A stretch of DNA of 33,901 nt from NCBI GenBank assembly GCA_038886995.1, contig JAWALG010000009.1, positions 1 through 33,901 on the forward strand. Reading direction: 5' to 3'. The notes below the pieces were generated by a model. That model was not told where the DNA came from and ran no database searches. It saw only the letters and a program-made list of their open reading frames with translations. This DNA is from Candidatus Iainarchaeum sp. (GTDB taxonomy: Archaea; Iainarchaeota; Iainarchaeia; Iainarchaeales; DTGL01). Below, piece by piece: positions 565 through 29,709 of this stretch. Positions within the stretch are counted from its first letter, which is position 1. Every line of letters begins with the position of its first letter. The position numbers and the translations under genes are program-made.

Positions 565-568
565 AAAA

Positions 569-1245: not shown

Positions 1246-1251
1246 AAAAAA

Positions 1252-12205: not shown

Positions 12206-12265
12206 CGAAAAAAATATTAATATAGAAGTATATTATAGAAATAAACCGTAGTTGAGAGTGTATGT

Positions 12266-13933
12266 ATGGTAAAAAAGTCCAATTCATTTGGTAAAGCAGG
12301 GTTTCTGCTTGTGCTTACCCTTTTGTGTACTACTGCTTTTGCGACAGTACCAAGATTGCTTACAGTGCAAGGGCGACTTAAAGATGGCACTGTGCTCGCG
12401 CATGGCGACTATAATATGACCTTTTACATCTACGATGTTGACTCTAGCGGAACTCCGCTTTGGAGCGAACAGCACTACAATGTACCTGTTGATAGGGGCT
12501 ATTTTAGCGTGATCCTTGGTGAAAGCAACCCAATAACATTGCCTTTCAATACACAATATTGGCTTGCAATAAGAGTCAACAATGAAGCAGAAATGACGCC
12601 ACGCTTGAAGCTAACAAACTCAAGCTATGCTTTTTATGCAATAGATGCAAATGTAAGCCCTTCACAGTGGATAACATCAGGCAACAACATTTATTACAAC
12701 CAAGGTAATGTTGGCATTGGAACATCAACACCCGGGACAAAATTGCATATTCAGGCAGATGGAATTTGGCAGGATAGCAGTTCTGGGGTGTTTCGCATTA
12801 GTGGCAGCACAAATCCAAACTATAGGCTACACATGGGTTATGATACAACCAATAATTTTGGTTGGATTAATGCAGTCGAAGCAGGGGTAGCCGGCAGAAA
12901 TCTTATCTTAAATCCGAGTGGTGGAAATGTTGGCATAGGATTGATAACACCATCACAAAAACTAACAGTTGCGGGAAGTATTGGCATTCTGGCTGGTGCT
13001 AATTCGTTTATTGGAACCTTGGATAATTATGACTTAATTTTGAGAACTAACAATACAAACAGACTTTACATCACAAATACAGGCAACATCGGCATTGGAA
13101 CATCAACACCTTCTTATAAACTAGATGTAAATGGCCCCATGCGCCTCATGCCAAGCACTGAACCAACAGGTGCTAATGGAGTCATTTACTATGACTCAAG
13201 CACAAATAAATTCAGATGTTACGAAAATGGTGCATGGGCTAATTGTATTAGTGCAGGCGGCGGCTCAGTAATATCAGCAGGCGACTCTAAAGTTGAAGTT
13301 GTTGATACTGGCAATGGCTATATCAGTTTCCAAGATGATGGTGTTGAAAGAATGAGGTTAGATGGTAATCTTAATATGCTAAATAATTCTATCATGAACG
13401 CCAACTTAAGAGATATAAATGTCTTGTCTTGGTATTACACAGCAAGCACCAGCCCACAGTTGGCTGCAAATGATTCATTGCAGTCAACTAACAATACATC
13501 ATTTACATTAATTAAAACCATAAGAGTTCCGTATCAGTATGTATGGACAACAAGGAGTTCCTTTAATGTTTACTTTGAATATAAGGCTTCGTCTTCCACA
13601 CATTCAAGTTGTAGAACTCAATTTCAAATAAGGCGTAATGGAACAACAGCATTAGCTAGTTACAGCTCTGCCAGCAACACTTGGTCTTCGGCAAATGTAA
13701 ACGTTAGTGACTTTGCTCCCGGGGACACAATAGAAATTTGGGGTTCTGCTGGGTACAGCAATTATGAGTGCTCATCTTGGTGCTATGACTGGGATTTAGG
13801 TTCTTGGTATTGTTGTGGAGGTTATGGTTGTACAGGTTCTATAATCTCTGCAAGTGTGCAAAACTTTAGGGTCAGAGGAACTATAAATTACCAGTCTTTA
13901 CCACTAACAGTATCCACGCAAGTTTGGTCATAA
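12266..13933 (+). CDS. Secreted tail-fibre/adhesin-like protein with GN(V/I)GIG repeats
   Basis: Signal peptide; N-terminal QGRL.....G.Y.MTF.IYD....G..LW.E.H..V.V..GYFSV.LG...WL.I.VN..EM.PR module; three GN(V/I)GIG repeats; 20-bp exact DNA repeat GGCATTGGAACATCAACACC at 12713 and 13091. Confidence 0.8.
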   Translation: MVKKSNSFGKAGFLLVLTLLCTTAFATVPRLLTVQGRLKDGTVLAHGDYNMTFYIYDVDSSGTPLWSEQHYNVPVDRGYFSVILGESNPITLPFNTQYWLAIRVNNEAEMTPRLKLTNSSYAFYAIDANVSPSQWITSGNNIYYNQGNVGIGTSTPGTKLHIQADGIWQDSSSGVFRISGSTNPNYRLHMGYDTTNNFGWINAVEAGVAGRNLILNPSGGNVGIGLITPSQKLTVAGSIGILAGANSFIGTLDNYDLILRTNNTNRLYITNTGNIGIGTSTPSYKLDVNGPMRLMPSTEPTGANGVIYYDSSTNKFRCYENGAWANCISAGGGSVISAGDSKVEVVDTGNGYISFQDDGVERMRLDGNLNMLNNSIMNANLRDINVLSWYYTASTSPQLAANDSLQSTNNTSFTLIKTIRVPYQYVWTTRSSFNVYFEYKASSSTHSSCRTQFQIRRNGTTALASYSSASNTWSSANVNVSDFAPGDTIEIWGSAGYSNYECSSWCYDWDLGSWYCCGGYGCTGSIISASVQNFRVRGTINYQSLPLTVSTQVWS

Positions 13934-14040
13934 TTTAAGTGAATCAGTATAAGTTGCAATTTTTAGACGTAAATTTTGGCATAGCTTTTCGTATTTGGTA
14001 AATTAATACAATTATAAACTCTTATTTATTTAATATTTAA

Positions 14041-14997
14041 ATGCCCATAAAGCGTCTTGACCTGAAGCTTGGCTTTAGATGCAACAACAATTGCCTAAGC
14101 TGTCCACAGGCCCATAGAAAACATCTTGGTGATTTAAGCACAGCTGAGGTAAAAAAACTTCTTGAGAAAGGCCGTGATCACGGCGCTAATGAAGTTGTGC
14201 TCACAGGCGGAGAGCCAACTGTAAGGCCCGACATCCTTGAAATAATCTCTTATGCAAAAAAACTTGGCTACGAGTTTATACAATTGCAGACAAATGCAAG
14301 GATGCTTTACTACAAAGAATTTTGCAAGAAGCTTATAAAAGCAGGAATAACTGAATTTGGGCCAGCGATCCATGGACCTAACGCAGAGGTTCATGATTAT
14401 TTGGTGCAGTCACCTGGCGCTTTTGGCCAAGCAATTAAAGGCATAAGAAACCTAAAAGAACTTGGCCAATATGTTATAATGAACTCAGTAATAAACAAAA
14501 TAAACTATAAACTTCTCCCTGAAACAGCAAAGCTTTTTGTTGACCTAAGCGTAGATCAATACCAATTTGCTTTTATACATTGTGTCGGGAATGCAAAAAA
14601 GAATATAGATCTATTATTACCAAAAAAAAGCGAGGTTATGCCCTACTTGCATAAAGCTTTGGACATCGGCATAAATGCAGGCATAAAAGTTATGGTTGAA
14701 GCATACCCATACTGTTTCATGCGTGGCTATGAAAAGTACTGCTCTGAGCTCTATATGCCACCAGCAGAGATAATGGATGCTGAAGGCATAGTAGAGGACT
14801 TTGACAAGCTTAGGAAAGAAACTGGCAAACTTAAAGGCCCTAAATGCAAAGGATGCCGCTATGACCTTATCTGTGAAGGGCCTTGGAAAGAATATCCTGA
14901 AAAGTTTGGCTGGGCCGAGTTTGTACCTATTGCTGGAAGAAAAGTTAAAAGCCCTGAAGAAATACTGGGGCAAGAATTGGCAAAAGAACTGAGTTAA
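14041..14997 (+). CDS. Radical SAM protein, HxsC-like paralogue 1
   Basis: CNNNCLSC, LTGGEPT, TNARML and HD motifs, plus a C-terminal CKGC.....CEG....Y...FG..EF.P cluster; adjacent to hxsB. Confidence 0.88.
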   Translation: MPIKRLDLKLGFRCNNNCLSCPQAHRKHLGDLSTAEVKKLLEKGRDHGANEVVLTGGEPTVRPDILEIISYAKKLGYEFIQLQTNARMLYYKEFCKKLIKAGITEFGPAIHGPNAEVHDYLVQSPGAFGQAIKGIRNLKELGQYVIMNSVINKINYKLLPETAKLFVDLSVDQYQFAFIHCVGNAKKNIDLLLPKKSEVMPYLHKALDIGINAGIKVMVEAYPYCFMRGYEKYCSELYMPPAEIMDAEGIVEDFDKLRKETGKLKGPKCKGCRYDLICEGPWKEYPEKFGWAEFVPIAGRKVKSPEEILGQELAKELS

Positions 14998-15030
14998 TTG
15001 TTTTAAAAAGATTGTCTACAATTCCCTAAT

Positions 15031-16482
15031 ATGGCTAAGATTATGATGGAAAATATGTTAGATTTTGACTCCGGTTATGTTCTTAATTTTTATAATGTTA
15101 AAAAGCTGAGGGAAAACGCATATTTGGTAACTACAGAGCACGGCGCATGGGCCTTGCTGAATAAAAAGCAATACTACCTGCTAAGGTTGCAGCAATTAAG
15201 CAAAGACAAAAAGCTCTTCAATGAGCTTGAAAAAAAAGGCATAATTTTAACTGAAAAAAATGTCCAAAATGCAGTAAAGGCCTATGCTGTAAGAAACTCT
15301 TTCCTGTTTCAAGGACCTTCGCTTCACATAATTGTGCCTACTCTGCGATGCAATCAACGTTGCATATACTGCCATTCGCGAGCAGAGCCCGAAAGTGGCA
15401 AAGGCTTTGACATGGACAGAGACACAGCAAAAGCAGTAGTGGACTTCATATTTAAGAGCCCTTCAAAAATACTGATCATAGAATTTCAAGGTGGCGATTG
15501 CCTTCTAAACTTTGAAATAACTGAGTTTATAATAGATTATGCGAAAGATCTTGCAAAGAAAAAGAAAAAGAGTGTTGGCTTTTCAATTGTAACAAATCTT
15601 ACCAAAATGGATGAGGACATTATAAGAAGTTTAAAGGAAAGGCACATAATGGGTTTGGCAACATCTCTTGACGGACCTAAGCACGTGCATAACAAAAACA
15701 GGCGTTACCTTGGTGGAAAAGGCACTTATGAAGATGTTGTATACTGGATAAAAAGGATTAAAGAGGAATGGAAATACGACTTCAACCTAAATGCGCTTTG
15801 CACAATAACAAGACATTCTTTGCCTTATGGCAAAGAAATTGTTGATGAATATATGTGTTTTGGTTTCAATGGTGTCTGGCTTAGGTTTATGAACAACATA
15901 GGTTTTGCTGCTGATTCTTGGACAAAGATAGGTTACACACCAGAAGAATACCTGATGTTTTATGAAAAGACCCTTGACTACATAGTCAGCAAAAACACAA
16001 GAGAGCAGCATTTCACAGAGTTGATGGCCTTGATATTCCTCAAGAAAATACTTACAGAAAGGGATCCTTACTTTACTGACATTCAGAGCCCTTGTGGTGC
16101 TGGAATAGGACAATTGCTTTACAAATACAATGGCGACATACATACCTGCGATGAAGGAAAGCTTTTTGAGGAGTTTAAGCTTGGCAATGTTTTCACTTCA
16201 AAGTATGAAGATATATTCAACAATGATACACTAACAACAATGATTGATATTTCCTCAAAAAAGAATTACCTTTGCGATGCTTGCGTTTGGAGCCCATATT
16301 GCGGCATATGCCCCTTGCATACTTATGCAACACAAGGCACGATTGTTTCAAAGCTTGCTCTTGATGAAAGATGCAAAATAATGCAAGGTCTTATAAGCAG
16401 AATTTTTGAAAGGCATTTATTCTCAAGGAAACACAGCGTTGTTTTCAAAAATTGGGTTGAAAAAGATGTTGTGTTTAAGTAG
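15031..16482 (+). CDS. hxsB: His-Xaa-Ser system radical SAM/SPASM maturase HxsB
   Basis: N-terminal RRE-like YLVTTEHG...ELEKKG, GPSLHIIVPTLRCNQRCIYCH, IEFQGG, TSLDGP..HNKNR, D..SPCGAGIGQL.Y.YNGD..TCDEG and C..C...PYCG.CP SPASM motifs; HxS precursor nearby. Confidence 0.93.
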   Translation: MAKIMMENMLDFDSGYVLNFYNVKKLRENAYLVTTEHGAWALLNKKQYYLLRLQQLSKDKKLFNELEKKGIILTEKNVQNAVKAYAVRNSFLFQGPSLHIIVPTLRCNQRCIYCHSRAEPESGKGFDMDRDTAKAVVDFIFKSPSKILIIEFQGGDCLLNFEITEFIIDYAKDLAKKKKKSVGFSIVTNLTKMDEDIIRSLKERHIMGLATSLDGPKHVHNKNRRYLGGKGTYEDVVYWIKRIKEEWKYDFNLNALCTITRHSLPYGKEIVDEYMCFGFNGVWLRFMNNIGFAADSWTKIGYTPEEYLMFYEKTLDYIVSKNTREQHFTELMALIFLKKILTERDPYFTDIQSPCGAGIGQLLYKYNGDIHTCDEGKLFEEFKLGNVFTSKYEDIFNNDTLTTMIDISSKKNYLCDACVWSPYCGICPLHTYATQGTIVSKLALDERCKIMQGLISRIFERHLFSRKHSVVFKNWVEKDVVFK

Positions 16483-16490
16483 GGGTTTGC

Positions 16491-17561
16491 TTGTTTGAAT
16501 TTTTCTTTGCTTTTGCAATTTTTGTTTCCTTGGCAATATCTCTCAAAGATATTAAGTATGGAAAGATACCAAATAAGTACATTGTTTTGCTTCTCGCTTC
16601 TGGCATTTTTTATCAGGCCATAAGTGCAGCAGATTACTTAAAGGTAGTTTTCACATTTTTCTATGCTCTTGCAGTGGCTTTTTTGCTCTGGCTTTTTGGC
16701 ATATGGCCGGCTGGCGATGCAAAGCTTTTCTCTGTTCTATTCCTGCTTTTACCGCAAACTCTTTATGCATCACCAAATCTGACATTTGACTTTCTGGTTA
16801 ATTGCTTCGTGCCAATATTCTTCTTTATGTTTTTTATAATAATAGCTAAAAGCCGTTTTTCAGTATTGAAAGATGCTATTAAGTTTACATTTCAGCCGTA
16901 TAGGGTAACAATCCTTGCTCTGGCTTTGCTCGGATTTGTTTGGTTCCTCTCTAAGCTGTTAAGCTTGATCGCTTTTGGGCAAGCAATTTTTAGTGACTAC
17001 TTTGTAATGTTGCTTCTACTTTTTTTAACTTATGAGGCTTTTAGGCGAATTCTAAGTGCAAAGTTGGAGCTTCTTTTTTTTGCGCTTGCTGTGCTTAGGG
17101 TTGTGCTTGACTACAGGAATGTTTACTCGATATCTTTTATGCTCAACTTCGCAACAATGATTGGAGTATTTCTTTTCTTCAGATTCTTCATAATATACTT
17201 GGCCTTTAAGCTTTACACTAAGAGCGTTCCTATAAAGAAACTTAAGCCGGGAATGTGCCCAGCAGAGATGATTTTGCAGAAAGGTAATGGCTTTGAGAGA
17301 GTTAGCTTCCTTAACTCAGGCCTTTTGGCCTTTGGTAATGAAAAGAGGGGGCAGATACTGCATAACATTGATTGCCTCTCGGAAGATGATATAAAGAAAA
17401 TAAAAAAGCTCCGCAGAGAAAAGAAGATTCCATTTGATGACATGCTGATAAACTTTACTCAGCCATTTGCAATATTCATTGTTTTGGGGTATGCTCTTAC
17501 TGTGCTTTTTGGGACAAGCTTTTTGGTTTTTATATCCAAACAATTACTGCTTTTTAAGTGA
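16491..17561 (+). CDS. A24-family prepilin/prearchaellin peptidase, long multi-TM (EppA-like) form
   Basis: SLKDIKYGKIPN and GIWPAGDAKLF catalytic Asp motifs, about 10 TM segments, LKPGM..AE and PFA.FI..G C-terminal motifs; TTG start 8 bp after the hxsB stop. Confidence 0.9.
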   Translation: MFEFFFAFAIFVSLAISLKDIKYGKIPNKYIVLLLASGIFYQAISAADYLKVVFTFFYALAVAFLLWLFGIWPAGDAKLFSVLFLLLPQTLYASPNLTFDFLVNCFVPIFFFMFFIIIAKSRFSVLKDAIKFTFQPYRVTILALALLGFVWFLSKLLSLIAFGQAIFSDYFVMLLLLFLTYEAFRRILSAKLELLFFALAVLRVVLDYRNVYSISFMLNFATMIGVFLFFRFFIIYLAFKLYTKSVPIKKLKPGMCPAEMILQKGNGFERVSFLNSGLLAFGNEKRGQILHNIDCLSEDDIKKIKKLRREKKIPFDDMLINFTQPFAIFIVLGYALTVLFGTSFLVFISKQLLLFK

Positions 17562-18595
17562 GTAAAAAAATGCCTGCGGGAATCTTGTAACTATGGAATG
17601 GCTTGCTTCACATAAGGTCCAGCAGTTATTTCAGTTCTCTATTCTTTTGGATATTTCCCTGGCTTTGTTTGATTGGAGAAGCTTAGCTAAGGAGTAATTA
17701 AAGTCGCGTAAGTTGCCCAGTAAATCTCCTCTAGAAATGCAAGGAAAAACATTTAAGCAAGGATCTAAAAAATTGAATTATTGGCAGCTCCACAGTGCAG
17801 GGGGTTCTTTAGACCTGGTTCTATGAGAGACAAGTAGATTCTTTTAAGAAGATATTCTGAAGAAAGCGAAAAGGTTAGCTTTTTTCTTATTTCGGCGGCT
17901 TCTTTGTGTGCATTTTTGGCAAAATTAGAATATTCACTATCTAGCTCCTTATTTGCGTAGAAATTCTCGGATATGTGAAATAAAGTAAATTGGAAATCCT
18001 TTTCAGTGCAGCCAACCCTTGTGTTGGCTCCCTTGAGTGTTTCTTCAAAAAGACCAAAGTTGTATGGGCTTATAGTGAACTCAAAAAGGCATCTAAAGTT
18101 GCTGAAATCATTTTCTAAGGTCTTGAGAAGGGCAAAACATTTCAAGCTTTTCTTAAAGGCCCCTTTTGCTCCTCTTTGTGAATCATGAAACTCTTCGGGC
18201 CCATCTAGACTTATTGTTACAATAGTGCGAGGTATCCCCAGGGCGGCAATTCTCTTTGCTTTTTTTAGGATTCTGCCAGGGTTCGAGCCGTTAGTGGGGA
18301 TGTTAAGAACATATAAGCAACAGTTCCTCTTTGCTGATTCGGCTATTTTTTTCAATGTCGTTTCTGAGGAATGGCTCTCCGCCTGTCAAGCTTAGCCATC
18401 TAATAAATCTTGCCTTTGAGAACAAGGCATCGATTTCTTTAATATCCGCCTCTTTTATTTGCTTTTTTTCCAGATTTTGCAAATTTTACATTTGTAGTTG
18501 CACTTGTGAGTTACAGCAAAAGTCATCTTGAATGGTTTTTTTGGTGTTCTGAAATTGCATAAAAAAACCTCTGAAAAAAAGGAAATGCCACGCAT
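17544..18595 (-). pseudogene. Disrupted radical SAM/SPASM (Twitch) gene with three homopolymer frameshifts and one in-frame TGA
   Basis: ATG at 18595 gives ...FAVTHKCNYKCKICKIW. Shift at A7 (18469-18463) gives ...WLSLTGGEPFLRNDIE. Shift at A7 (18352-18346) gives the ORF-track fragment with PTNG, ISLDG and CGA. Shift at T6 (17772-17767) gives LDPCLNVFPC...LGNLRD...IEN*NNCWTLCEA..., ending at TAA 17546-17544. Confidence 0.88.
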
Positions 18596-18647
18596 AATCG
18601 ATTTTTGTTGCGATACATTAAAAACAATTATTTGAGTTAATGTAAAT

Positions 18648-19562
18648 ATGCCTGAAATAAAAACTGCTTTGCTTCTTGGCTACAAATGCAACAATAATTG
18701 CAGGTTTTGCTATGCAGCAGATAAACGTGAATTGCCCTTGATGAGTACTGAAGAAGCAAAGAGGCAATTAAGGGCTGCAGTAGAGCGTGGATCAACCTTT
18801 GTTGATTTTCTCGGCGGCGAGCCAACAATAAGAAAAGACCTTGTTGAGCTAATTTCTTATGCAAAAGAGCTCGGCTTTAAAACTATAAGCATCACAACAA
18901 ATGGAAGGATGCTTTCAAATGCTGAATATGCAAAGAAGCTTTATGATGCGGGATTAAATTCTGCGGTATTTTCAGTGCATGGCCACAACGCAGAGCTGCA
19001 TGACTACCTTGTTAATGTTAAAGGCGCTTTTGACCAGCTTGTGAAAGGCATGCAGAACTTCAGGGCAATATCAGAAGAGGTCTATATATGCACAAATACA
19101 GTTATCGTAAAACCAAACGTTGCATTTTTGCCAGAGATTGCTGAAATAAATGCAAAGCTTGGGGCTAACGGCATGGAGTTTATTTTTCCGCATCCAAGAG
19201 GCAACGCTTACAAAAATTTTGAAGATATGGTTCCGAGGCTTGAACATTTAATAGGTGTTGTGCAAAAAACAATTGGTGTATGCACTTCAAAGGGCATAAG
19301 GCATTGTTATTTCAGATACGTGCCTTTTTGTTATATGTACGGCGCTATAAATTTCATAAGTGAATACGCAGCAAAAACTTCACTAAAAGAAACTCACATA
19401 GGCCCAGAATTTGAGGACCTCGAAGTTGAAAAAAACCGCACCAAGCAAGGCCGTGTCAAGGGACCTCAGTGCTTTGGATGTAAATACAATGAAATCTGCG
19501 AAGGGATCTTTAAAGAATATGCTGAAAAGCGCGGCTTTGAGGAATTGGTGCCTGTGCCATAA
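18648..19562 (+). CDS. Radical SAM protein, HxsC-like paralogue 2
   Basis: CNNNCRFC, GGEPT, TNGRML and HG..AE.HD motifs; C-terminal KGPQCFGC.....CEG....Y....G.EEL.P. Clearly paralogous to 14041..14997. Confidence 0.88.
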   Translation: MPEIKTALLLGYKCNNNCRFCYAADKRELPLMSTEEAKRQLRAAVERGSTFVDFLGGEPTIRKDLVELISYAKELGFKTISITTNGRMLSNAEYAKKLYDAGLNSAVFSVHGHNAELHDYLVNVKGAFDQLVKGMQNFRAISEEVYICTNTVIVKPNVAFLPEIAEINAKLGANGMEFIFPHPRGNAYKNFEDMVPRLEHLIGVVQKTIGVCTSKGIRHCYFRYVPFCYMYGAINFISEYAAKTSLKETHIGPEFEDLEVEKNRTKQGRVKGPQCFGCKYNEICEGIFKEYAEKRGFEELVPVP

Positions 19563-19571
19563 TAAGGTGCT

Positions 19572-20030
19572 ATGATGGAGTTAAGGATATTGCTAAATGC
19601 CTTGAAAAGGAAAGAGTTCGCATTTCCAATAGCTTTTCTTTTATTTTTGCTAATCTTTGGAATAATAATGCTAATTAACGACTTAGCAAATAGACCAAAA
19701 AGTATTGAAGAAGCAAAAAAATCTGGCTGTGTTTTAGAGTATGGGCAATGGCAGTGCATTGACGGAAAGATTGCGATACCTTTTTATAACCCTGGACCGA
19801 AAGACATAACTCTGGCAAGAGTATCGATTCCGGTCACCAAAGGCCTAAACATATATGAGGCAAATGATTTACTCCATAGCAACGAAGCCGGAAGTCTGAT
19901 TACTGCAAACTGCGAAGAGGCGTTTATGGAAAAAGCAAATTTACAATGGTGCTGCTCAGGAATGTGTTTTATTAGTGATTTTAAAAGCCCAAATTTGAAT
20001 ATTTCAATAAAAGTAGATTCAACGCAATAA
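19572..20030 (+). CDS. Hypothetical membrane-anchored Cys-containing protein
   Basis: AAGGTG RBS, 9 bp after the radical SAM stop, one TM helix and six Cys in the ectodomain. Confidence 0.7.
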   Translation: MMELRILLNALKRKEFAFPIAFLLFLLIFGIIMLINDLANRPKSIEEAKKSGCVLEYGQWQCIDGKIAIPFYNPGPKDITLARVSIPVTKGLNIYEANDLLHSNEAGSLITANCEEAFMEKANLQWCCSGMCFISDFKSPNLNISIKVDSTQ

Positions 20031-20051
20031 TATGGCGATAATTTTTAAAGA

Positions 20052-20981
20052 TTAGTCGAGCAATGTAGCGATACCCCCCTGACACAGGATGTCTTCAATG
20101 CTTTTGTACCTCTGTAGAATGATATTTTTTAGTTGCAAACCTTGCTTTTCTTCAATAAGGGGGCTTATTTTACAGAATTTTCTTAAAATCAGATAGTCGC
20201 GCATAAAACAAAGGTTACTCAATTGTTTTTCAGGGGGGTTTCCTTTTATTTTTTTACATATGCTTGCGTCAATCTCGGATGCTATTTCTGGACTATCGGC
20301 CTTGATCCCCAACAAGTCACTATCAAAGAGATTACCCAAGACCACTGCTTTATTTTTCAAACTTTTCAGATTATCAGTAGTATTTGGTTCATCAGTTTTT
20401 GTTTTTAATACTTTGTAGGCAATCTCTTTTTTATTTAACAAATCAGCATTGCCGCATTCTTTCTCGGCAGTAAGATAGCCATATAGAAGTTCCAGATCGC
20501 CTTCATTGAATGATTCTTTACTAAAGTAATTTCTCCAGTGTTGCAAGGCTTTGGCGAACTTGGGGTTTGATATAATTTTAGCTTGAACCTCTTGCCAGTT
20601 TTTATCTCTATTTAATACTTTGCTACCAAGACAATAGCTACCCAAAACTTCCACTGGGTTACAAAGCTCAGGTATAGCGCAGTGCTTCTCAAAAGATGAA
20701 TCCATTAATGTTAATACATAGGGTATCTCACTATTGAGCTTTTCGGGGTCTTTGTCACCTGCAAAATAAACAAAAACGGATTTTGCTGCTAATACGTTAT
20801 ATATGGCTCTTGGTGTATTCTCGTCAGAAAGGACTAGTGGAATTTCATCATAACTGTAAATGTATGCTGGCTTGTTTTTACTATTTTGTGCTGTCAAGAT
20901 GTTGATGGCCACTACCAACAGCAGAATGGTGGCGATTAGGATGGCAAACCAAATAATTTTTTTGTTGGAAATCATCATCAC
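20052..20981 (-). CDS. Hypothetical secreted or membrane-anchored protein with multiple Cys
   Basis: KK plus a hydrophobic N-terminal helix; TATA-like TTTATATA upstream at about 21025. Confidence 0.7.
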   Translation of the reverse strand: MMMISNKKIIWFAILIATILLLVVAINILTAQNSKNKPAYIYSYDEIPLVLSDENTPRAIYNVLAAKSVFVYFAGDKDPEKLNSEIPYVLTLMDSSFEKHCAIPELCNPVEVLGSYCLGSKVLNRDKNWQEVQAKIISNPKFAKALQHWRNYFSKESFNEGDLELLYGYLTAEKECGNADLLNKKEIAYKVLKTKTDEPNTTDNLKSLKNKAVVLGNLFDSDLLGIKADSPEIASEIDASICKKIKGNPPEKQLSNLCFMRDYLILRKFCKISPLIEEKQGLQLKNIILQRYKSIEDILCQGGIATLLD

Positions 20982-21054
20982 CAGCCCACATCCGTTATTA
21001 TGTGAGAAAAACGAACTTTATATAAATATATAATTAGAAATTTTTTTGGTTGAT

Positions 21055-22902
21055 TTATAGCGCCAGGTAGAGTTCATAAAGCTCATTTCTATTAAAGACA
21101 TCATCTATTTTAGGTCCAGACCTACCGTCGCAGAACTCAACTTTCGAGTTTTGCTTTACCTTAAAGAGTTCTAAGCAATTTGAGCAATCACTTGGTATAT
21201 TGAAATATTCATAAAAGTCTTTCTCTTTTTTGTCACTTGAATCACTTATTTTTATTTTTTTAGTCACTAGGAATGGAATTCCGTTGGTTTTGAGGGAATA
21301 GAGAAAGTCCTTAAAAAAAACAGTTTCTCTTGTGTTTAGCTGCTGCTTGCATGGTGGAGAAAGCAAAAAAAGCACAAGGCCTTTAATCCGTTCATTGAGT
21401 TTCAACATTCTCGAAAGCAATATTTCCAAGTTATCACTCTTGGGATTTAATCTAACAAGGACAGCACTACCTACAGCATTACCTGTCCTTGGAACTGAGT
21501 TAAAGTTATTGTAAACGGGCATCTCGATATTCTGCCCTATAAGGTATGTTCTATTTTTTGCGATTTTTAGATATGGCTTTAGCTTTATGAGTTGGCTTTC
21601 AGCCAAGTATCTGAAGTAAGCTAAGGTCTCTTCTTTTCTCTCCTTGCAATGTGTTTTGTCTGGTAGGTAGATTGTCCCATTCTTTCGAATATTGCTCAGC
21701 AAACACCCGCCCCAACAAAGCTTAAAGTCGCATTCATAGCATTTCTTTACTTTTCGGTACCATGTGCGCACCTCATTTAGCCTATCTTTGTCTAAAATTA
21801 TTTTTTTATTTTTGAAGTCATACCTCCCAAAAACCAACTTATTTGCGTTATGATTAACGACATCATATTCATCACCTAGCATAGCACATGGTGTAACAAG
21901 ACCTTCAGGAGTTATCACAAAAGAAGAAGAAACTGCACATCCACAAATTTGTGTATTACCAATCGATTTTTGGGCTGGTAGCAAACATTTAAGGTTTATT
22001 ATATCGCACAGCTCTTTTATTTTTAGCTGCGATTCTATTAGCCATTCATATTGCTTCATCGATCTTATTTTTTCTGCGGAAAGCGCTTCTTTCCCAATGT
22101 CACCAACTATTGTAATGAAAAGTCTTTTTACGCCTAGCGAGAGAAAATATTTTACTACATCTGATTCTTTCCCAAGGTGTTTTTCTGTCAGAGTTATTTT
22201 GACTGTGAAATTCATGTTTTTAGATATCAATTTCCTTAGGTTGTTTTCAACAATTTGGCTACTTTTTAGACCATTTTTTAAAGGCCTTAGTGAATCTTGT
22301 ATCTCGGGTGGGCCATCGCAAGATATCTGAAATGAGTCATAAAATGGGTTTTCCTTTAATATTTTAAGGAATTTCTCAGGCAATAGTGTGCCATTTGTTG
22401 AAAGCTTGAATTGTTTCACATTTATTGACTTCTTAGTTATATCAATGGTCTTTGAAAAAAGTGGAAAGTTTAGCAGGGCTTCACCAGAAGTTACGAAATC
22501 AACTATAACCCCCTCCTTTTGGTTTCTAGCAATGAATTCTGTTGCTGCTTTTATTATTTCCAAAGAAGAGTCCTTACCACTTTTTAATCCGCCATATCCA
22601 ACACAGTATCTGCAGTTCATATTGCATTTAGTGGTCGATGCTGGAAGAAAACATGAAAATGATTCAACTTTTGCAAATGGTTTCATTAAGTTGACTGCTA
22701 AGTATTTTTGACCATGAGAACTAAACAAATCTTTATCCATAACGTAGAAATTCGAAGAATTGCTACAAAATGCAACATACAAGTTTTTTCTTCTGAAAAG
22801 AAAGTGAAGGAAAGGGCTTCTTCTTGAAAGCTCTTTCTTAATATCAGAGGTCTCTTTGCTAAAGAACTTTTCATTATTTTTTTCAAATATCTTAAGAAGC
22901 AT
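21055..22902 (-). CDS. Radical SAM/SPASM peptide-maturase-like protein with an extra C-terminal domain of about 170 aa
   Basis: CNMNCRYC, STNG, ISCDG...QD..R, then CGC...ITPEG.V.PC and CYEC....CWGGC...C SPASM cysteines; starts 8 bp after the hxsA stop. Confidence 0.9.
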   Translation of the reverse strand: MLLKIFEKNNEKFFSKETSDIKKELSRRSPFLHFLFRRKNLYVAFCSNSSNFYVMDKDLFSSHGQKYLAVNLMKPFAKVESFSCFLPASTTKCNMNCRYCVGYGGLKSGKDSSLEIIKAATEFIARNQKEGVIVDFVTSGEALLNFPLFSKTIDITKKSINVKQFKLSTNGTLLPEKFLKILKENPFYDSFQISCDGPPEIQDSLRPLKNGLKSSQIVENNLRKLISKNMNFTVKITLTEKHLGKESDVVKYFLSLGVKRLFITIVGDIGKEALSAEKIRSMKQYEWLIESQLKIKELCDIINLKCLLPAQKSIGNTQICGCAVSSSFVITPEGLVTPCAMLGDEYDVVNHNANKLVFGRYDFKNKKIILDKDRLNEVRTWYRKVKKCYECDFKLCWGGCLLSNIRKNGTIYLPDKTHCKERKEETLAYFRYLAESQLIKLKPYLKIAKNRTYLIGQNIEMPVYNNFNSVPRTGNAVGSAVLVRLNPKSDNLEILLSRMLKLNERIKGLVLFLLSPPCKQQLNTRETVFFKDFLYSLKTNGIPFLVTKKIKISDSSDKKEKDFYEYFNIPSDCSNCLELFKVKQNSKVEFCDGRSGPKIDDVFNRNELYELYLAL

Positions 22903-22910
22903 TTATGACA

Positions 22911-23273
22911 CTAATAGCACCAAACATCATAACAATAGCCAATCCCACTATAGTGGCTTCCGTGGCTGCTGTGGCTGGAGTGGCTGCTGTGGCTGCTGTG
23001 AGAACTGTGACTGGAGTGGCTCGCATGACTCGCGTGATGTCCATGGCTTGCTGTAATATTTCCAGCATTCCAACCAACGCTAAAATAGTTAGTATGTGCT
23101 GCAGCGACTTCAGGCAAAATATTAAGTATTGAAACTGAACCTAAAAAAGCGCCCAAGGCAAGCATCTTGTGCTTCGAAATGCTGCCGCGCTCCTCCAAAA
23201 CAAATGATTTTATTGTCTTTTTTACCCTGGGCAAAAAATTTTCTTTTTTAGGGCTTTTTTCTTCTTTTTGCAT
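22911..23273 (-). CDS. hxsA: His-Xaa-Ser repeat precursor peptide HxsA
   Basis: Ten consecutive HxS triplets (HAS HAS HSSx6 HGS HYS) after a charged-plus-hydrophobic leader; flanked by HxsB/C/D homologues. Confidence 0.93.
   Translation of the reverse strand: MQKEEKSPKKENFLPRVKKTIKSFVLEERGSISKHKMLALGAFLGSVSILNILPEVAAAHTNYFSVGWNAGNITASHGHHASHASHSSHSSHSSHSSHSSHSSHGSHYSGIGYCYDVWCY
22947..23036 (-). repeat. Ten imperfect 9-nt tandem units encoding His-Xaa-Ser
   Basis: Units CAC/CAT-NNN-AGY/TCT with synonymous variation (TCC AGT, AGT TCT, AGC AGC, TCC AGC), which indicates selection at the protein level. Confidence 0.95.
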
Positions 23274-23292
23274 CTATTAAATAATAGATATA

Positions 23293-23303
23293 CTTATTTA
23301 AAA
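23293..23303 (-). promoter_or_regulatory. TATA box for hxsA; transcript probably leaderless
   Basis: TTTTAAATAAG ends about 20 nt before the ATG at 23273, with purine-rich AGAAA upstream and no RBS. The same 11-mer lies upstream of the perR-like gene. Confidence 0.6.
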
Positions 23304-23337
23304 TATTTCTGGGGCACTTTGCAGCCATAACAAGAAA

Positions 23338-24180
23338 TCAAATAATTGGGTTAAACTCTTTTCCCCCAGCAATAGCAAGGTAACTTTTCCATATCTTTGG
23401 GCATTTTTCTCTAACTTTACACATTGCACATTTTTTTAGAAGTGTTAGCTCTGCCTCCTGCTTTGTCACGCCTTCCGCAAGAGGCCAATATTTTTTATTT
23501 ATTATACATAGGGGAAAATGAAACAACCTTACCTCAAATCCTGCATCTAACAGAATGGTTGCGGCTTTTTGTACAAAGGGTGCTGCCTTGCAATATCTAA
23601 CGAAAATCTTGTGCCTGTTTATAAAAGCATTTCCTGTGTATTTTAAGTTGATAAAAACAACTCTCTCGAGGCCTTTGAAATTTTTTGTTATGAATTCTGC
23701 AGTTTTGCTTAAACTCTTATAATTCGCTTTTTCCACGAGAATTCTTAACTCAACTTTGAAGCCACTTTGAAGAAGATTATTTATGCCTTGAACTGTTTCG
23801 TTCCAGCTACCTTTTGCCAAAGTAATGTTGTCATGCACTTTGGGGTCATGGCTATAGAGTGCTATACCGAAGCGTATCGGCTCAAGCTTACTCTTATCCA
23901 ATTCTGCTAAAAAACTTTTTTCAGAAAACTTCCGCCCATTGCTAACAACAAAAATGAACTTCTTTGGGTGCTTCTTCCTTGCATAGGTCAGAATGTCGGG
24001 GAAATCGTCTCTAAGCGTTGGTTCTCCGCCAGTTACGCTGAAAATTTCTTCTTGTGGGATTTTGTTTATGATTTCAAACAGTGCATTTTTGCTTTGTTCG
24101 CCGAAACAAACAGTCATGCGTGTATCCATTATGCAGCTTATGCAATTATTGTTACACTTGAAGGTTAGTGGCCACTCCAT
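23338..24180 (-). CDS. hxsC: His-Xaa-Ser system radical SAM maturase HxsC-like (paralogue 3, between hxsD and hxsA)
   Basis: CNNNCISC, VTGGEPTL, SNGR.F, GIALYSHD..VHD, GSW.ETV.GI.NL, VELRI, PLC and C..C.....C motifs. Confidence 0.85.
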   Translation of the reverse strand: MEWPLTFKCNNNCISCIMDTRMTVCFGEQSKNALFEIINKIPQEEIFSVTGGEPTLRDDFPDILTYARKKHPKKFIFVVSNGRKFSEKSFLAELDKSKLEPIRFGIALYSHDPKVHDNITLAKGSWNETVQGINNLLQSGFKVELRILVEKANYKSLSKTAEFITKNFKGLERVVFINLKYTGNAFINRHKIFVRYCKAAPFVQKAATILLDAGFEVRLFHFPLCIINKKYWPLAEGVTKQEAELTLLKKCAMCKVREKCPKIWKSYLAIAGGKEFNPII

Positions 24181-24252
24181 TTCAAATCGACTCTATTCAA
24201 CTTTTTTAAGGCCCCGCTCTAGTTTTTCATTCATTTTCACTACCAAACAAAA

Positions 24253-24510
24253 TCAAGGTGCTGCGCCCTTTATAATACCTAAAAGGAAGTTGCAAAATTC
24301 TAAAGCAAAAGTTTCAGCACACCTTTTTTCAGTTTTCACTGTAATATGAAAGTAATTTTTTGACTCTTTATTTGTTAATTTCGCGCCTTTAACTTCTTTA
24401 AGCGCTTTGTTAACTACTTTTTTAGGGTAAAATGCCTTCGAAAGATTTATTTTTGCTGTTTTTTTACTCTTATTGACTTCAATAGGAGAACCCTTACAAC
24501 CAGCAGTCAT
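24253..24510 (-). CDS. Small HxsD-like protein
   Basis: INLSKAFYPKKVVNKAL...ALEFCNFLLG parallels the N-terminal module of the adjacent HxsD; 3-bp gap to hxsD. Confidence 0.65.
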   Translation of the reverse strand: MTAGCKGSPIEVNKSKKTAKINLSKAFYPKKVVNKALKEVKGAKLTNKESKNYFHITVKTEKRCAETFALEFCNFLLGIIKGAAP

Positions 24511-24513
24511 AAT

Positions 24514-25017
24514 TCAACCTTTTTTAATTATTTTTGGCTTCTTAAGCCCTTTCGCCTTTTCCGGAGTCCAGGGCCTGGCTATGCCTTCAGGGTCGTCTAT
24601 GAATAGGTCTTCATCAGGCATTTTTATCTTTTCTGCTTTTTCATCTAATCTACTTTTTTCCTCAGATGCACATTCTTCGCAATATTCTGCTTCAGAGAGG
24701 TTTGTGGCCAGAGCACGCCTAATTATCGCTTCCCTTATGGGTTGGTTGCGCGCTGCTTGTACTGCGTAAGTTGCATAATTTATTAGCTCATCATGGAGCT
24801 TTAAAGCAAGAGATTCAAGCTGTTTCTTGCTGGCTTTTTCTTCTTTTGGCTTTATAAAAACTTTAATCTCTTTTTGCGGATCCCCATCAAGTATAAAGTA
24901 CGCTTTATCCATAAGTACATAACAAGCAGCATAAACGACTTCAAGAGGAAAAACTTTTGGGTTCACATTTACAATTGCTTCATTTTTATCGGGGGATACT
25001 TCAACATTGTGTACCAT
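24514..25017 (-). CDS. hxsD: His-Xaa-Ser system protein HxsD (ATG at 25017 preferred over the ORF-track start at 25047)
   Basis: VNPKVFPLEVVYAACYVLMDKAYFILDG...LHDELINY...IREAIIRRAL is the HxsD pattern. AAGTGA RBS-like sequence precedes 25017. Confidence 0.85.
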   Translation of the reverse strand: MVHNVEVSPDKNEAIVNVNPKVFPLEVVYAACYVLMDKAYFILDGDPQKEIKVFIKPKEEKASKKQLESLALKLHDELINYATYAVQAARNQPIREAIIRRALATNLSEAEYCEECASEEKSRLDEKAEKIKMPDEDLFIDDPEGIARPWTPEKAKGLKKPKIIKKG

Positions 25018-25119
25018 AAAAATCACTTTTGAGCATGCATCGAACAATGGAAAGGTTAATTAATAACAATAATTAAATATATAAAAATGTTTATATTTTA
25101 GCGCTCACAGGGATAAAAC

Positions 25120-28100
25120 ATGAAATTGTCTGAATATTTTTTCTTGAAGTTTATTCTGGTTGTTCTGCTAATTAACTTTTTTGGTTTTGTAAATGCACAA
25201 ACGTGCTACGGCGGGCTTTCAGGAAGTAGTTTGCGGGATTGCATTGGCAGTGACGAGAGTCCATGCCATTACTGTGATGTTAGTGACATGGACTATGAAA
25301 TAAGAGCACCTGACAATATTACAACAACTGGTTGGCGCGATATGACTTATTCTACGCAAGTTGGAACATGTAGCGTTAGTTGCACTCAAGAAACATGGAC
25401 AGCAAGCTATCTTTGGTGCCCTCAAGAAGGAACTTATTCAATGAGGACAAGGGCTTATGCACAAGGAGGTAGTGGTTATGCTTGGGAAACTAGTGACTGG
25501 AACACAAACGCTTATACTGTAAATTACGATTATGAACAAATATGGTGTACTTGCAAAGGTGGCACATGGCTTTCAGGAGCAACATACTGTGGCAGCCTTG
25601 GATGCCAAGGCGGAAAGTGCTGTGGCGATGATGGTGCAAATGACAATTTTTGTGTTGCTGGTGGTGGGAGCTGCGTAGCTGGAACATATTACGCAAACCA
25701 TTGTTCAGATGGTGTCCAAAACTGTGATGAACAAGGTGTTGATTGTGGTGGTGCTGATTGTACTCCTTGTGTAAGTGTTGTTATAAATAACCCAAACGGC
25801 AACCAATACATAAAGGGCACATACAACATTGATTTCAATGTTTATGACCCAAATAACGGAGAACTGCATGCAAAAATTGCATATTCTGCATTGCCAGGTC
25901 TTTTTTCTAACACAATTGTTTCAGATCTCAACCTAAATAATGATCCAAACATTGGCGCCTTAACCTGTGATAAAACTAACTGGAGCACTTCAACAAGGTG
26001 CATATATTCTTGGGACACTACAACAGCAAACGATGGCAACTATTACATAGATATGAATGTGTGGAGCATTTCAGGTGGCTCCTCGATAGATTCTAGCAAT
26101 GCCTCATTTGCAATAGACAACACAGCACCTACTACCAGCGCTAGTGCAAAGAAGAGTGATGACACCAATTATACATTTGGAGAATGGAGTAAACTAAATG
26201 TTACTGTAACACTTGAATGCTCGGACGAAACAGCTGGTTGTGATAAAACATATTACTGCTTTGGCTCCGGTTGCAATCCCACAACAATTTATTCTTCCCC
26301 AATAACAATATCCTCAGAAGGCACAACATACTTGAGGTTCTACTCTGAGGATAATGCAGGCAATAGTGAAAGTGTTCAAGAAAAGATTGTAAAAATAGAT
26401 AAGTCTGGGCCGACAACAACAGACAATGCTCCCACAACTTGGCAAATTAGTGATTTCAATATAACCCTTAGCTGTGATGATGGTTCCGGCATTGGCTGTT
26501 CTGAAACCTATTACAGGATAAACAATGGTGCTTGGCAGCCCTATTCTGAAGGCATAAGCATAACACAAGATGGAAACAATCGCATTGATTATTACAGCAA
26601 CGATCTGCTAAACAACATTGAAGACACAAAAACTTGTTATGCTCCACTAGATAAAACTCCGCCAGTAATAGATGTTAACTCTCCTTTGGCTAATGAAGTT
26701 ATAGAGTCAACTATATACGTAAGGTTTAAAGTAAACAAAGGTTTGGGATCACCTTTAGACTTTAATTCGATAACTGTGCTTTTGGATGGTACTGAAAGCG
26801 ATGATTTTATTAGGACAGAACACTGCATAGAATCTAGTGGCGATTATATCTGCTCTTATTACGAATATGTTAACACTGCAAAGGATTACAACCTTTCAAT
26901 AATAGTAAGTGATGAAGCGGGTTGGACAGCACAACAAGACATTAATTTCTTGTATTTAGGTCACACTTCTTTCAATATAGAAGGTTACATTGTAGAACCT
27001 AGCACACCAATGGCTGGAACTAATTATTCAATGATGGATGTTGGTTTAAGCTTATTCGGTGGCTCTCTCTGTGCCGCGGCGAAATGCATTGAAACGGGCT
27101 TCCCAGCAATATTCAGGAATATTCCACCAGTGCTTGTATATGCTGGTTATGAAGAGGGTTACTTTAACGGAGACCTTAACATAAGGTTCTATGCTGCTGA
27201 CTATGAGATGGGTGAATTGCACACTAAGATAGCATATTCTACATCCAAAGGCTCATTCCAAAACAGCATTGTTAATGACCTTAACCTAAACAATTACCAA
27301 AATATTGATAGGTTAAGTTGCGCAAGTACTGATTGGCGTTACGCTAAATTATGCACTTATGAGTGGGATACAACACAAGCGAGCGATGGCAACTATTATC
27401 TTGACCTAAATCTATGGGATGAACATGGTGCAAGTAGCAGCTATTCAACAACTAACACTCTCTGTATAGACAATATTGCGCCAGATATAAATGTGATTAA
27501 TCCACAGCCAAACGAAATAATTGAAGATCCCTGGGTGATGTTCAAGATATCTGAAAATGGTTGTGCTCCTTTGGTTTTGAGTTCAATATCAGTTCTTTTG
27601 GATGGTGAAGCCGCTAACTTTGACTATGTTAGGGATTGCAATAAAAGTGGATCTGAGTATACCTGTGGCTTTAACATAATTGGGCTCGTTGAAAGAGATT
27701 ATAATTTGAGCATAATAGTAAGTGATTTAGCGACAAATAAGAGGCAAGTTGATGTCAACTTCAGATTTATTCCAAAAATTTCTGTAAGTGCTATCCGGCC
27801 CAGTGGCACTCTTGAGACGGGAGATATAACAATATCCTTTAATGTTTACAATACCTCGCTGAGTGAGCTCCATGCAAAGATATATTATAGCTCAATATAT
27901 GCTGGAAAACTTGGCTTTGAAAATGCGATAGAAACAGACCTAAATCTCAACAACTATGCACAGATAGAAAACCTAAATTGCACCTCAAATGCTTGGTGGC
28001 CACCGGTGCAGTGCACATACTACTGGGATGCTAGCAGTGTTGCTGATGGCAACTATTACATAGATATAAATATCTGGACAAATGAGGGTTTAACAGCATC

Positions 28101-28827: not shown

Positions 28828-28844
28828 TCCGCATTGTTTTGGGT

Positions 28845-29705
28845 TTAAGCTGGTGCGAAGAGGGAAATTGCGGTTATATAAATAAACAATGATGTTGTGA
28901 GGAGTATTATTGAATGCTTTATTCCTGCTATAAAGCTATCCTCAGCTATTTTGCCTATCATTGGTCCAGCAAAGAGAGCCTGTATAATTATAAGCCTAGT
29001 GAAGTGCTCTTGATAATCTACATCTTCGGCTGTTGGCTGAGAGGCAATTGGCTGTCCAGTTATATCTATGCCACCTTCAAGCACTTGGCCAACGTTTATG
29101 CCAACTTGCTCCTTAAGAATCGGGATAAAGAAAACATATATGAGTATTATTATGATAACAAAAACGTAAAACATGAGATAGGAGTTTATAAGCGCGGATG
29201 TAGTCCTAGATTTCCTCTGGCTTTTAAGCTTTTCAACTTTGTCAACATAGTCAATTGCAACAGAGAATACCTTCATAAAGTTGCCGCCTGCACGTAGCGT
29301 TTGGTTTATAGCTACGGTTGTTTTCTTTATAACTGGGCTGTTTAGGCGTCCGAAGGTTATAAGCATTGCTTTCTCCATTGGCACCCCTAAACGAACTTTT
29401 GCTGCAAGCCTCTTCACATATATGGTCAGCGGCCCATAATCATTCTTGGCAGTTATAACCAAGGCATCACTTATGTTGACCCCGCCTTGGAGGAGATCCT
29501 TTAGGTCATCCAAAAAAACCCTGAAGTTTTCTTCAATTTCCTTAACCACTTTAGTCCTAATATAAAAGGCATACATCGGCGGTATGAAAAGCAAGATAAA
29601 AGGCACTAATGAAAAGCTCGTGTTATTTAGCACAAAGTAAGATGCCAAAAAGACAATAACGCCGATAAAAATCCATCTCCCATAATATTTCCATTCAACT
29701 GCCAT
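28845..29705 (-). CDS. Type II/IV secretion system F-domain platform protein (TadC/ArlJ/PilC-like)
   Basis: IEENF..FL.DL....GG.....AL......DYGPL; ...GG; IIQALFAG..IGKI.E.S...G.KHS; multiple TM segments. Confidence 0.9.
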   Translation of the reverse strand: MAVEWKYYGRWIFIGVIVFLASYFVLNNTSFSLVPFILLFIPPMYAFYIRTKVVKEIEENFRVFLDDLKDLLQGGVNISDALVITAKNDYGPLTIYVKRLAAKVRLGVPMEKAMLITFGRLNSPVIKKTTVAINQTLRAGGNFMKVFSVAIDYVDKVEKLKSQRKSRTTSALINSYLMFYVFVIIIILIYVFFIPILKEQVGINVGQVLEGGIDITGQPIASQPTAEDVDYQEHFTRLIIIQALFAGPMIGKIAEDSFIAGIKHSIILLTTSLFIYITAISLFAPA

Positions 29706-29709
29706 TAAA

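Follow-up and report, generated by a model that had tools for sequence, protein, structure and literature searches.

The 33,901-nucleotide stretch of DNA analysed here (the window; contig JAWALG010000009.1 of assembly GCA_038886995.1, Candidatus Iainarchaeum sp.) contains a His-Xaa-Ser (HXS; genes hxs) locus that probably encodes an "A24-type" variant of HXS maturation, in which a repeat-bearing precursor, HxsA, would be modified by radical S-adenosylmethionine (SAM) enzymes and lose its leader to a dedicated membrane peptidase. This A24 peptidase is the defining part of the variant and forms a subfamily of its own. The host is an archaeon of the Iainarchaeota (Diapherotrites) with a small genome, the assembly comprising 865,833 bases at 88.6% completeness. 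According to the open reading frame (ORF) lists, the locus occupies positions 14041-25047 as two converging arms over about 11 kb. The plus arm consists of an HxsC-like gene, hxsB, the A24 peptidase, a second HxsC-like gene and the gene of a 152-residue membrane-anchored protein; the minus arm consists of hxsD, an hxsD-like gene, hxsC, hxsA, a 615-residue SPASM enzyme and a 309-residue protein. An earlier interpretation made from the letters alone (the sequence-only reading) had named these genes and the converging arms, and every one of them is present within the limits it gave. Its description of a His-Xaa-Ser locus with several enzymes, resembling those of peptides that are made on ribosomes and modified after translation (RiPPs), in an archaeon whose genome is small (0.87 Mb, 88.6% complete) is likewise supported. 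Its count of six radical SAM genes holds for five intact genes; the sixth has decayed into a pseudogene, broken by three frameshifts and one internal stop, so the number is five intact plus one dead. The assembly as a whole has about 13 radical-SAM-like genes with a CxxxCxxC motif, 5 of them in this locus.

The canonical HXS system (TIGR03976-03979) has been characterised in E. coli, where a four-gene system is reported to stop the DNA of 110 of 113 phages from entering the cell (Li et al. 2026, PMC13128918); the statement of the sequence-only reading that HXS function is not well resolved is therefore outdated for the canonical form. As described in that paper, HxsB, HxsC and HxsD are needed for N-terminal cleavage of HxsA, for a gain of 8 Da on its SHRSS motif and for its accumulation in the periplasm, and HxsA carries a peptidoglycan-binding domain and basic repeats. 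The paper leaves open the cutting of HxsA, its export route and the radical chemistry, and the systems surveyed were 99.7% from Pseudomonadota and more than 99.8% of the four-gene kind. The terms "archae", "peptidase" and "protease" are absent from its main text, and the first two also from three of its five supplements.

The archaeal locus shares with the canonical system an HxsB above the curated cut-off, a true HxsC orthologue, HxsD, and a precursor in which an N-terminal hydrophobic segment is followed by tandem His-x-Ser repeats and for which N-terminal processing would be expected. It differs in its host, its leader, its dedicated A24 peptidase and its second HxsD; its precursor lacks the peptidoglycan-binding domain and the basic SHRSS-type repeats; its HxsC lacks the N-terminal ~100 residues; it has in addition two HxsC4-like enzymes, a SPASM enzyme and two exported proteins; and its genes form two converging arms instead of the order D-B-C-A. 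The NCBI models HxsA3 (NF038309), HxsA4 (NF038313), HxsC4 (NF038332) and HxsD-like (NF038315) are the best matches for the precursor, the two additional HxsC-like proteins and the HxsD paralogue; all window proteins fall under the cut-offs of these models. The canonical system is already characterised and models cover the branch, while the A24-type variant is undescribed in the literature found, a search that mostly did not extend to subscription journals having returned no paper on it.

The precursor gene hxsA lies on the minus strand at 22911-23273 and encodes 120 residues of the HxsA3/HxsA4 type. A basic leader (residues 1-30, 23184-23273) ends in FxxxExG and is followed by a hydrophobic segment (residues 37-59, 23097-23165) ending in AxA, a possible signal peptidase I site, by ten tandem His-x-Ser triplets (residues 80-109, 22947-23036) that contain no Lys or Arg, and by a tail with two cysteines. 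Past residue 60 there is no Lys or Arg at all, and the protein has no Pfam domain match. HxsA scores 45.5 bits against HxsA4 (cut-off 55) and 38.2 against HxsA3 (cut-off 65), compared with 17.2 against the peptidoglycan-binding type TIGR03979 (cut-off 121.65). It is the sole ORF with at least three tandem HxS triplets among the 8,693 of the assembly, in agreement with the single precursor that had been proposed. HxsA has 176 homologues, the best-scoring named ones from Diapherotrites, and the number of repeats ranges from 1 to 53 across precursors. All 65 aligned precursors match HxsA3 and 64 of them match HxsA4 at E ≤ 1; the NCBIfam curators have therefore already seen this branch.

Several longer homologues carry an additional domain. 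A complete-looking Hint (intein-like) domain stands right after the repeats in 11 of 18 of them (P0122, P0123, P0125, P0128-P0132, P0134-P0136), starting with Cys, ending with His-Asn and mostly followed by a non-nucleophilic residue; the remaining tail of 2-10 residues resembles the tails of unfused precursors. In three precursors (P0037, P0041, P0046) a Peptidase_S74 chaperone begins after the last repeat, which hints at a trimeric form of the product. Hint and S74 domains are self-cleaving, and their presence suggests that it matters where the product ends at its C-terminus. A search for the S74 fusions in genomic context gave no HxS ORF in 80 loci, and a metagenome scan returned generic S74 proteins. 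A third domain, of about 350 residues, with a CPF start and without a Pfam match, is fused after the repeats in L006:7265-8725, L030:10001-11563, P0126, P0127, P0137 and P0138.

The FxxxExG leader is conserved among the precursors. In 64 of the 65 aligned homologues, with the FxxxExG pattern itself serving as the anchor, Phe is found at -7 in 62, Glu at -3 in 63 and Gly at -1 in 63. The leader is basic and amphipathic, with a median length of 22 residues and a net charge of +3 in these 64 precursors; the Gly is mostly followed by K-I-S-K, and a modest hydrophobic segment begins at +7 (mean of the best 17-residue hydropathy window, 1.8). These are the basic features of a class III signal peptide, namely a charged leader, Gly or Ala at -1 and a hydrophobic stretch after the cut, and prepilin peptidases are described as cleaving ahead of the hydrophobic domain (PMC4371748, PMC4858521). 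From the alignment and the predicted interface presented below, we infer that the A24 peptidase would cut after Gly30. The leader may also resemble those of Flp prepilins, but homology to Flp pilins was considered and rejected: Pfam gives it no support, and no Flp prepilin was found in the 10 genomes or records searched for comparison. The motif after the leader Gly we take to be twin-arginine-like, with Lys in place of Arg. Export of HxsA by the twin-arginine translocation (Tat) pathway was considered and rejected, TatC being found in none of five family genomes (88-96% complete); a signal peptidase I gene was found in all five.

The peptidase gene (16491-17561, plus strand) encodes a GxGD-type membrane aspartyl peptidase. 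It scores above the cut-offs of PF01478 (33.1 against 26.5 bits) and Arc_PepC (28 against 23.4), and no NCBIfam model matches it. The catalytic residues D20 and D76 are invariant in 21 of 21 rows of the alignment, and the subfamily carries a WxAGDxK motif. The best match of the predicted structure is FlaK (3s0x; Z 11.3, root mean square deviation 4.0, 146 aligned residues; next best Z 5.5), to be read with the caution that a Z under 13 warrants for helical proteins; Foldseek alone failed to recognise the fold (E 1.6). The enzyme thus shares with EppA, FlaK and PibD (MEROPS A24) the GxGD Asp pair, a FlaK-like fold, an EppA-like size and C-terminal domain, and the putative cut after Gly ahead of a hydrophobic segment. 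It differs from them in having WxAGDxK rather than GGDxK and in falling in a separate group of the tree; those peptidases have no known role in peptide maturation, and the substrates of EppA have Gln at +1 and Glu at +5 (PMC4371748, PMC4390842), neither of which is present in HxsA. Hxs-linked and housekeeping A24 peptidases (26 and 13 rows, respectively) separate with a Shimodaira-Hasegawa-like approximate likelihood ratio test (SH-aLRT) support of 99, and their profile scores do not overlap (at least 217 bits for the Hxs-linked subfamily, at most 116 for the housekeeping enzymes); by both measures the peptidase is not orthologous to the housekeeping EppA-like genes. A24 genes occur in all 41 relatives sampled, mostly as two housekeeping copies, and the extra copies adjoin hxsB; the assembly studied here has two A24 genes only.

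Structure prediction supports binding of the HxsA leader by the peptidase. When the peptidase was co-folded with HxsA residues 10-62, the score was 0.83, while the best of three unrelated control proteins scored 0.00; the runs share at least 91% of contacts and the predicted local distance difference test (pLDDT) of the partner is at least 68. The mark applied is reached by 116 of 157 solved complexes and by 2 of 215 mismatched pairs, rates that hold only roughly with the alignments used. The predicted interface involves D20 and residues 70-78 of the peptidase and residues 23-52 of the precursor.

The peptidase and the FxxxExG leader also occur together across genomes. Among 215 Iainarchaeota genomes, a precursor with this leader is present in 28 and the peptidase subfamily in 27, the latter defined as 26 genomes with a score of at least 217 bits plus one with a split gene, with at most 9 candidates scored per genome. 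Both are present in 25 genomes, the peptidase alone in 2, the precursor alone in 3 and neither in 185. Three of the five mismatched genomes have a contig that stops at the cassette; G251 and G256 look like true exceptions. Sixteen precursor-positive genomes lie outside the first sample; the peptidase is present in 13, and in 12 of these it shares a contig with the precursor at a distance of about 7 kb or less. A scan of GTDB gave at least 37 loci, three without the leader being set aside and one duplicating genome G011. Outside the phylum, the peptidase subfamily is present, among the matches listed, in 31 of 33 genomes that have the leader, or 18 of 20 when the 13 genomes that contributed to the profile are left out; one of the misses uses a different genetic code. 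Among plasmid and viral records, which are not whole genomes, the peptidase was found in none of 21 with HxsB but without such a leader, and in all four with the leader, a partly circular result. Since related genomes are not independent, no p-value is given. The peptidase is a core part of the variant rather than an accessory, while HxsC can be missing.

Some occurrences are irregular. G011 has two Hxs loci, and its Hxs-linked peptidase is broken up into two ORFs (L016:4195-5023, C31). In a complete Myxococcota chromosome (L108, G065) the precursor locus L050 is far removed from the peptidase, an HxsD gene and an HxsC-like gene. A24-type cassettes are also carried by viral contigs of IMG/VR (L066, L073-L076, L079), with precursors that end in long Thr/Pro-rich stalks.

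The remaining Hxs genes were identified by comparing the window proteins with 18,950 NCBIfam models at their curated cut-offs. An Hxs model is the best match for seven genes, as the sequence-only reading would have it, but six of the seven fall below the cut-off. The exception is HxsB (15031-16482, plus strand), a radical SAM/SPASM maturase scoring 430.8 bits against TIGR03978 (cut-off 370); HxsB is also above the cut-off in 10 of 12 genomes of the same family, and its closest solved structure is 5wgg (E 8e-41). HxsD (24514-25047, minus strand) scores 41.8 bits against TIGR03976 (cut-off 50), and in its version of the canonical LLNDYxLRE motif both Asp and Arg are replaced. The adjoining HxsD-like protein (24253-24510, minus strand; NF038315, 37 bits, cut-off 41) is its paralogue by profile comparison (probability 97.6%). 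The idea that it is a split-off N-terminus of HxsC was rejected (profile probability 0.1%), and the ~100-residue HxsC extension is not encoded separately elsewhere in the locus.

All three HxsC-like proteins contain the CNNNCxxC motif reported for them (CNNNCLSC, CNNNCRFC and CNNNCISC). Their best scores are to HxsC or HxsC4, above those to AhbD, MoaA and NirJ, and it is this ranking that speaks against cofactor families; the HxsC-like genes also co-occur with HxS precursors. The gene at 23338-24180 (minus strand; TIGR03977, 196.6 bits, cut-off 267.9) is the hxsC orthologue without the N-terminal extension; those at 14041-14997 and 18648-19562 (both plus strand) are HxsC4-like (NF038332, 149 and 157.5 bits, cut-off 500). 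In a tree of 92 of 172 HxsC-like sequences, all taken from Hxs loci and without a MoaA/NirJ outgroup, the 23338 gene groups with canonical HxsC (SH-aLRT 100). The 14041 gene falls in a group of 19 rows (SH-aLRT 99) with members from Patescibacteria, Elusimicrobiota, Woesearchaeota and Omnitrophota, and the 18648 gene in a short-branched group of 11 rows (SH-aLRT 99) with Patescibacteria, Elusimicrobiota and Woesearchaeota. By this tree, the paralogues are one canonical orthologue and two old bacterial-archaeal orthogroups, rather than local duplications.

A minimal cassette of the order A24-D-Dlike-B-A, with short precursors, is found in other families; such loci (L017, L018, L209, L210, L214, L220-L223, L226, L031, L044) have 1-4 repeats. 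No HxsC orthologue was detected in eight minimal-cassette genomes, which are incomplete, the best score being 106 bits compared with 196-203 in G000 and G002. Because these cassettes do without HxsC, the core consists of HxsB, two D proteins and the peptidase, with the HxsC-family enzymes as add-ons. A rise of repeat number with the number of HxsC-like genes was tested and set aside as weak (rho 0.38), the comparison using the 35 of 52 loci, not independent of one another, that have 4 kb or more on both sides. A precursor from Saccharibacteria (L038:9980-10696) has 53 His-x-Ser triplets with nine HxsC-like genes alongside.

The sequence-only reading had called the locus expanded. Relatives hold more radical SAM genes as well as glycosyl- and methyltransferases: their loci add HxsC-like genes, DUF483 partners, B12-type radical SAM enzymes, glycosyltransferases of the GT2, GT4 and PMT types, YcaO and a class V aminotransferase. 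YcaO genes adjoin Hxs genes in two family genomes (L012:404-2569, L019:4800-7043). In G002, of the same genus, three genes stand between hxsC and the hxsD-like gene that are absent here and for which the assembly yielded no orthologue. By gene content, then, this copy is reduced rather than uniquely expanded. The radical SAM/SPASM pseudogene (~17553-18595, minus strand) shares 43% identity with an intact 363-residue gene of G003, whose neighbours are glycosyltransferase genes of the GT2 and PMT types, and is probably what is left of a lost module linked to glycosylation; as the intact orthologue sits among glycosyltransferases, the enzyme need not have worked on the peptide backbone. Its breaks are at homopolymer runs, yet sequencing error was rejected as their cause: they recur in a contig that covers 12000-19491 without a gap and comes from the public run X1, possibly of the source sample.

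The 615-residue radical SAM/SPASM enzyme (21055-22902, minus strand), whose gene starts 8 bp downstream of hxsA, is a candidate for forming thioethers on the Cys tail of the precursor. Its best model is PapB (NF047865; 105.4 bits, cut-off 340), and its SPASM cysteines are invariant in 10 rows. It shares with the ranthipeptide/SCIFF maturases (PapB, 5wgg) the radical SAM and SPASM cysteines, and it adjoins Cys-tailed precursors; it differs from them in its score (105 against 340), in an extra C-terminal region of ~190 residues and in its putative substrate, a short tail on an HxS precursor. Of the precursors with at least two tail cysteines, 12 of 14 have the enzyme's gene no more than 2.5 kb away, compared with 1 of 44 others, 58 of 60 precursors having enough flank for the comparison. 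One Cys-tail positive is independent, a Parcubacteria locus, and the second, Cys-free copy in G011 is without the enzyme. Together these observations give moderate support to thioether formation on the HxsA tail.

The exported, membrane-anchored protein of 309 residues (20052-20981, minus strand) travels with the SPASM enzyme in the neighbourhoods compared; it matches no Pfam or NCBIfam family, and its Atlas model is only weakly like alpha/alpha toroids (TM-score at most 0.57). The family-specific 152-residue protein (19572-20030, plus strand), likewise assigned to no known protein family, has one transmembrane helix and, by alignment and model (pLDDT 85.7), a Cys-conserved immunoglobulin (Ig)-like beta-sandwich, with six cysteines invariant in 12 rows. 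Foldseek gives the archaeal pilin 8fk7 as its best match (E 5e-4), the structural aligner puts generic Ig folds ahead or level (Z at most 7.5), and there is no conserved Gly at a class III cut site.

The maturation proposed for the A24-type variant would proceed as follows. HxsA would be made with its basic leader, hydrophobic segment, ten His-x-Ser triplets and Cys tail, all of which can be read from the gene. By analogy with E. coli, the repeats would be modified in the cytoplasm by HxsB, HxsD with its paralogue and the three HxsC-family enzymes. The 615-residue enzyme, judging from co-occurrence and family, would act on the Cys tail, probably forming thioethers, and the A24 peptidase would then bind the leader, as predicted, and cut after Gly30 in the manner of a prepilin peptidase. 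These four steps together we consider probable. In a fifth step the product may leave by a route other than Tat, remain membrane-anchored or be freed at the AxA site, and end at the cell surface. The simplest route would be insertion into the membrane with the leader inside, cleavage by the peptidase, and then retention or release at AxA.

A number of points weigh against this scheme. The co-fold does not put Gly30 between the two Asp, and its controls were not housekeeping A24 peptidases or other signal peptides. The leader has mostly Lys or Ser at +1 and Lys at +4, whereas the true prepilins of this genome have Gln at +1 (in one, Val) and Glu at +5, and neither Class_IIIsignal nor Flp is among the 25 of 33 matching Pfam families listed for the 65 precursors; a site unlike that of prepilins fits a dedicated enzyme, yet the position of the cut therefore rests on inference. 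The co-occurrence comes from four Iainarchaeota families and scattered phyla that are not independent, and 12 of the 13 Cys-tail positives come from the host family, the source of the profile. Finally, as E. coli HxsA is cleaved with only HxsB, HxsC and HxsD encoded, the peptidase is not always needed.

As to the function of the matured product, its likeliest purpose would be to keep viral or other DNA from entering at the cell surface, an analogy with E. coli that we hold tentatively, at somewhat less than even confidence. It draws on homology to the sole tested system and on the A24-type cassettes on viral contigs. Against it, the precursor lacks the peptidoglycan-binding domain and its repeats lack basic residues; no defence genes were found in the flanks by PADLOC on 22 proteins, the matches being generic viperin on the radical SAM enzymes and one weak LeoBC; the neighbours are surface genes, and presence of the locus is fixed by family. 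More specifically, a prepilin-type peptidase may have been recruited as leader peptidase of a radical SAM peptide pathway, with a multiply cross-linked His-x-Ser surface polymer keeping viruses out of cells that have neither peptidoglycan nor periplasm, a conjecture that we rate as rather unlikely. Its extension to DPANN, Patescibacteria and several other phyla, with a membrane-anchored polymer that in some lineages would be glycosylated or finished by Hint or S74 domains, is to be taken as equally speculative.

The same maturation could instead yield a structural or adhesive surface element, a cross-linked, His-rich and perhaps trimeric fibre or coat with which a symbiotic archaeon attaches to its host or binds metal; we regard this as a minor but real possibility. 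The setting of the locus among surface genes speaks for it. Directly upstream (12266-13933, plus strand) is the gene of a 555-residue secreted fibre-like protein with GNVGIG repeats, which varies in length among relatives and weakly matches a mosaic adhesive trimer model (Bdello_MAT_N). Downstream, positions 25120-33801 encode a 1,235-residue Ig-repeat surface protein, a homologue of which adjoins many Hxs loci in the host family, two T2SSF platform genes and a T2SSE ATPase of type IV pilus type, and a prepilin-like gene (33091-33801). Precursors are present in 10 of 13 genomes of the host's own family and in 14 of 23 of family f21, but in none of the 38, 23 and 22 genomes of other families. 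The glycosyltransferases added in relatives, the three fusions to a chaperone of trimeric fibres and the absence of basic residues from the repeats would also fit a fibre or coat. However, the only family member tested is reported to be antiphage (PMC13128918), A24-type cassettes occur on viral contigs too, minimal precursors with 1-4 repeats are too short for a fibre, and no genomic locus carrying an S74 fusion was seen.

A released, small-molecule-like RiPP, such as an antimicrobial, a signal or a metallophore, is unlikely, although the precursor has no folded C-terminal domain, the Hint domains that follow the repeats point to a defined C-terminus, and the YcaO, methyltransferase and aminotransferase genes of relatives would suit such a product. 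The cuts by the A24 and signal peptidases would in this case only free a polycyclic His/Ser/Cys peptide, but the locus has no ABC exporter or soluble protease, the repeat number spans 1 to 53, and the E. coli product is described as working as a retained periplasmic protein (PMC13128918). It is very improbable that the A24 enzyme instead works like EppA as the prepilin peptidase for the type IV pilus genes that lie 11 kb downstream, with HxsA processed without it as in E. coli. The Arc_PepC domain and the ~8-9 transmembrane segments are like those of EppA (PMC4858521), pilus ATPase, platform and prepilin-like genes are present at 28845-33801, and the assembly has only two A24 genes; yet same-genus relatives hold two housekeeping A24 peptidases besides the Hxs-linked one, the subfamily tracks hxsA and hxsB rather than pili across phyla, it is phylogenetically separate, and its co-fold with the HxsA leader passes the mark.

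The locus is real and not chimeric. Two genomes of the same genus (G002 and G004) have both arms and the same flanking genes at 65-92% DNA identity, so that the synteny comparison proposed earlier retained the two-arm layout, and a further X1 contig covers 19494-21111 across the arm junction with no difference. That the arms are an assembly chimera, as the sequence-only reading had allowed for, or a set of unrelated radical SAM genes for cofactor biosynthesis has a negligible probability: six of seven Hxs genes score under their cut-offs and no single X1 contig spans the whole locus, but the layout and flanks recur in relatives, the junction is bridged, the GC content is even, and each of the three HxsC-like genes scores higher with Hxs models than with AhbD, MoaA or NirJ. 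Promoter and terminator scans, made with models of bacterial type, were near chance. At the start of the window (1-1647, minus strand) lies an oxidative-stress cluster of Fur/PerR, rubrerythrin and peroxiredoxin genes.

If the A24-type reading with an entry-blocking product is true, it would describe an archaeal antiviral system acting at entry and a RiPP route with class III processing, neither of which was found in our literature searches. The variant supplies a candidate protease and a candidate cut site for steps that the E. coli study left open, and its cassettes provide natural contrasts, in that some have HxsC or the Cys-tail enzyme and others lack them, and repeats number from 1 to 53. 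Small-genome archaea keep this costly cluster of Fe-S enzymes as a family-wide trait, and whether it serves antiviral defence at the entry step or builds a modified surface coat, either would be new for the biology of DPANN.

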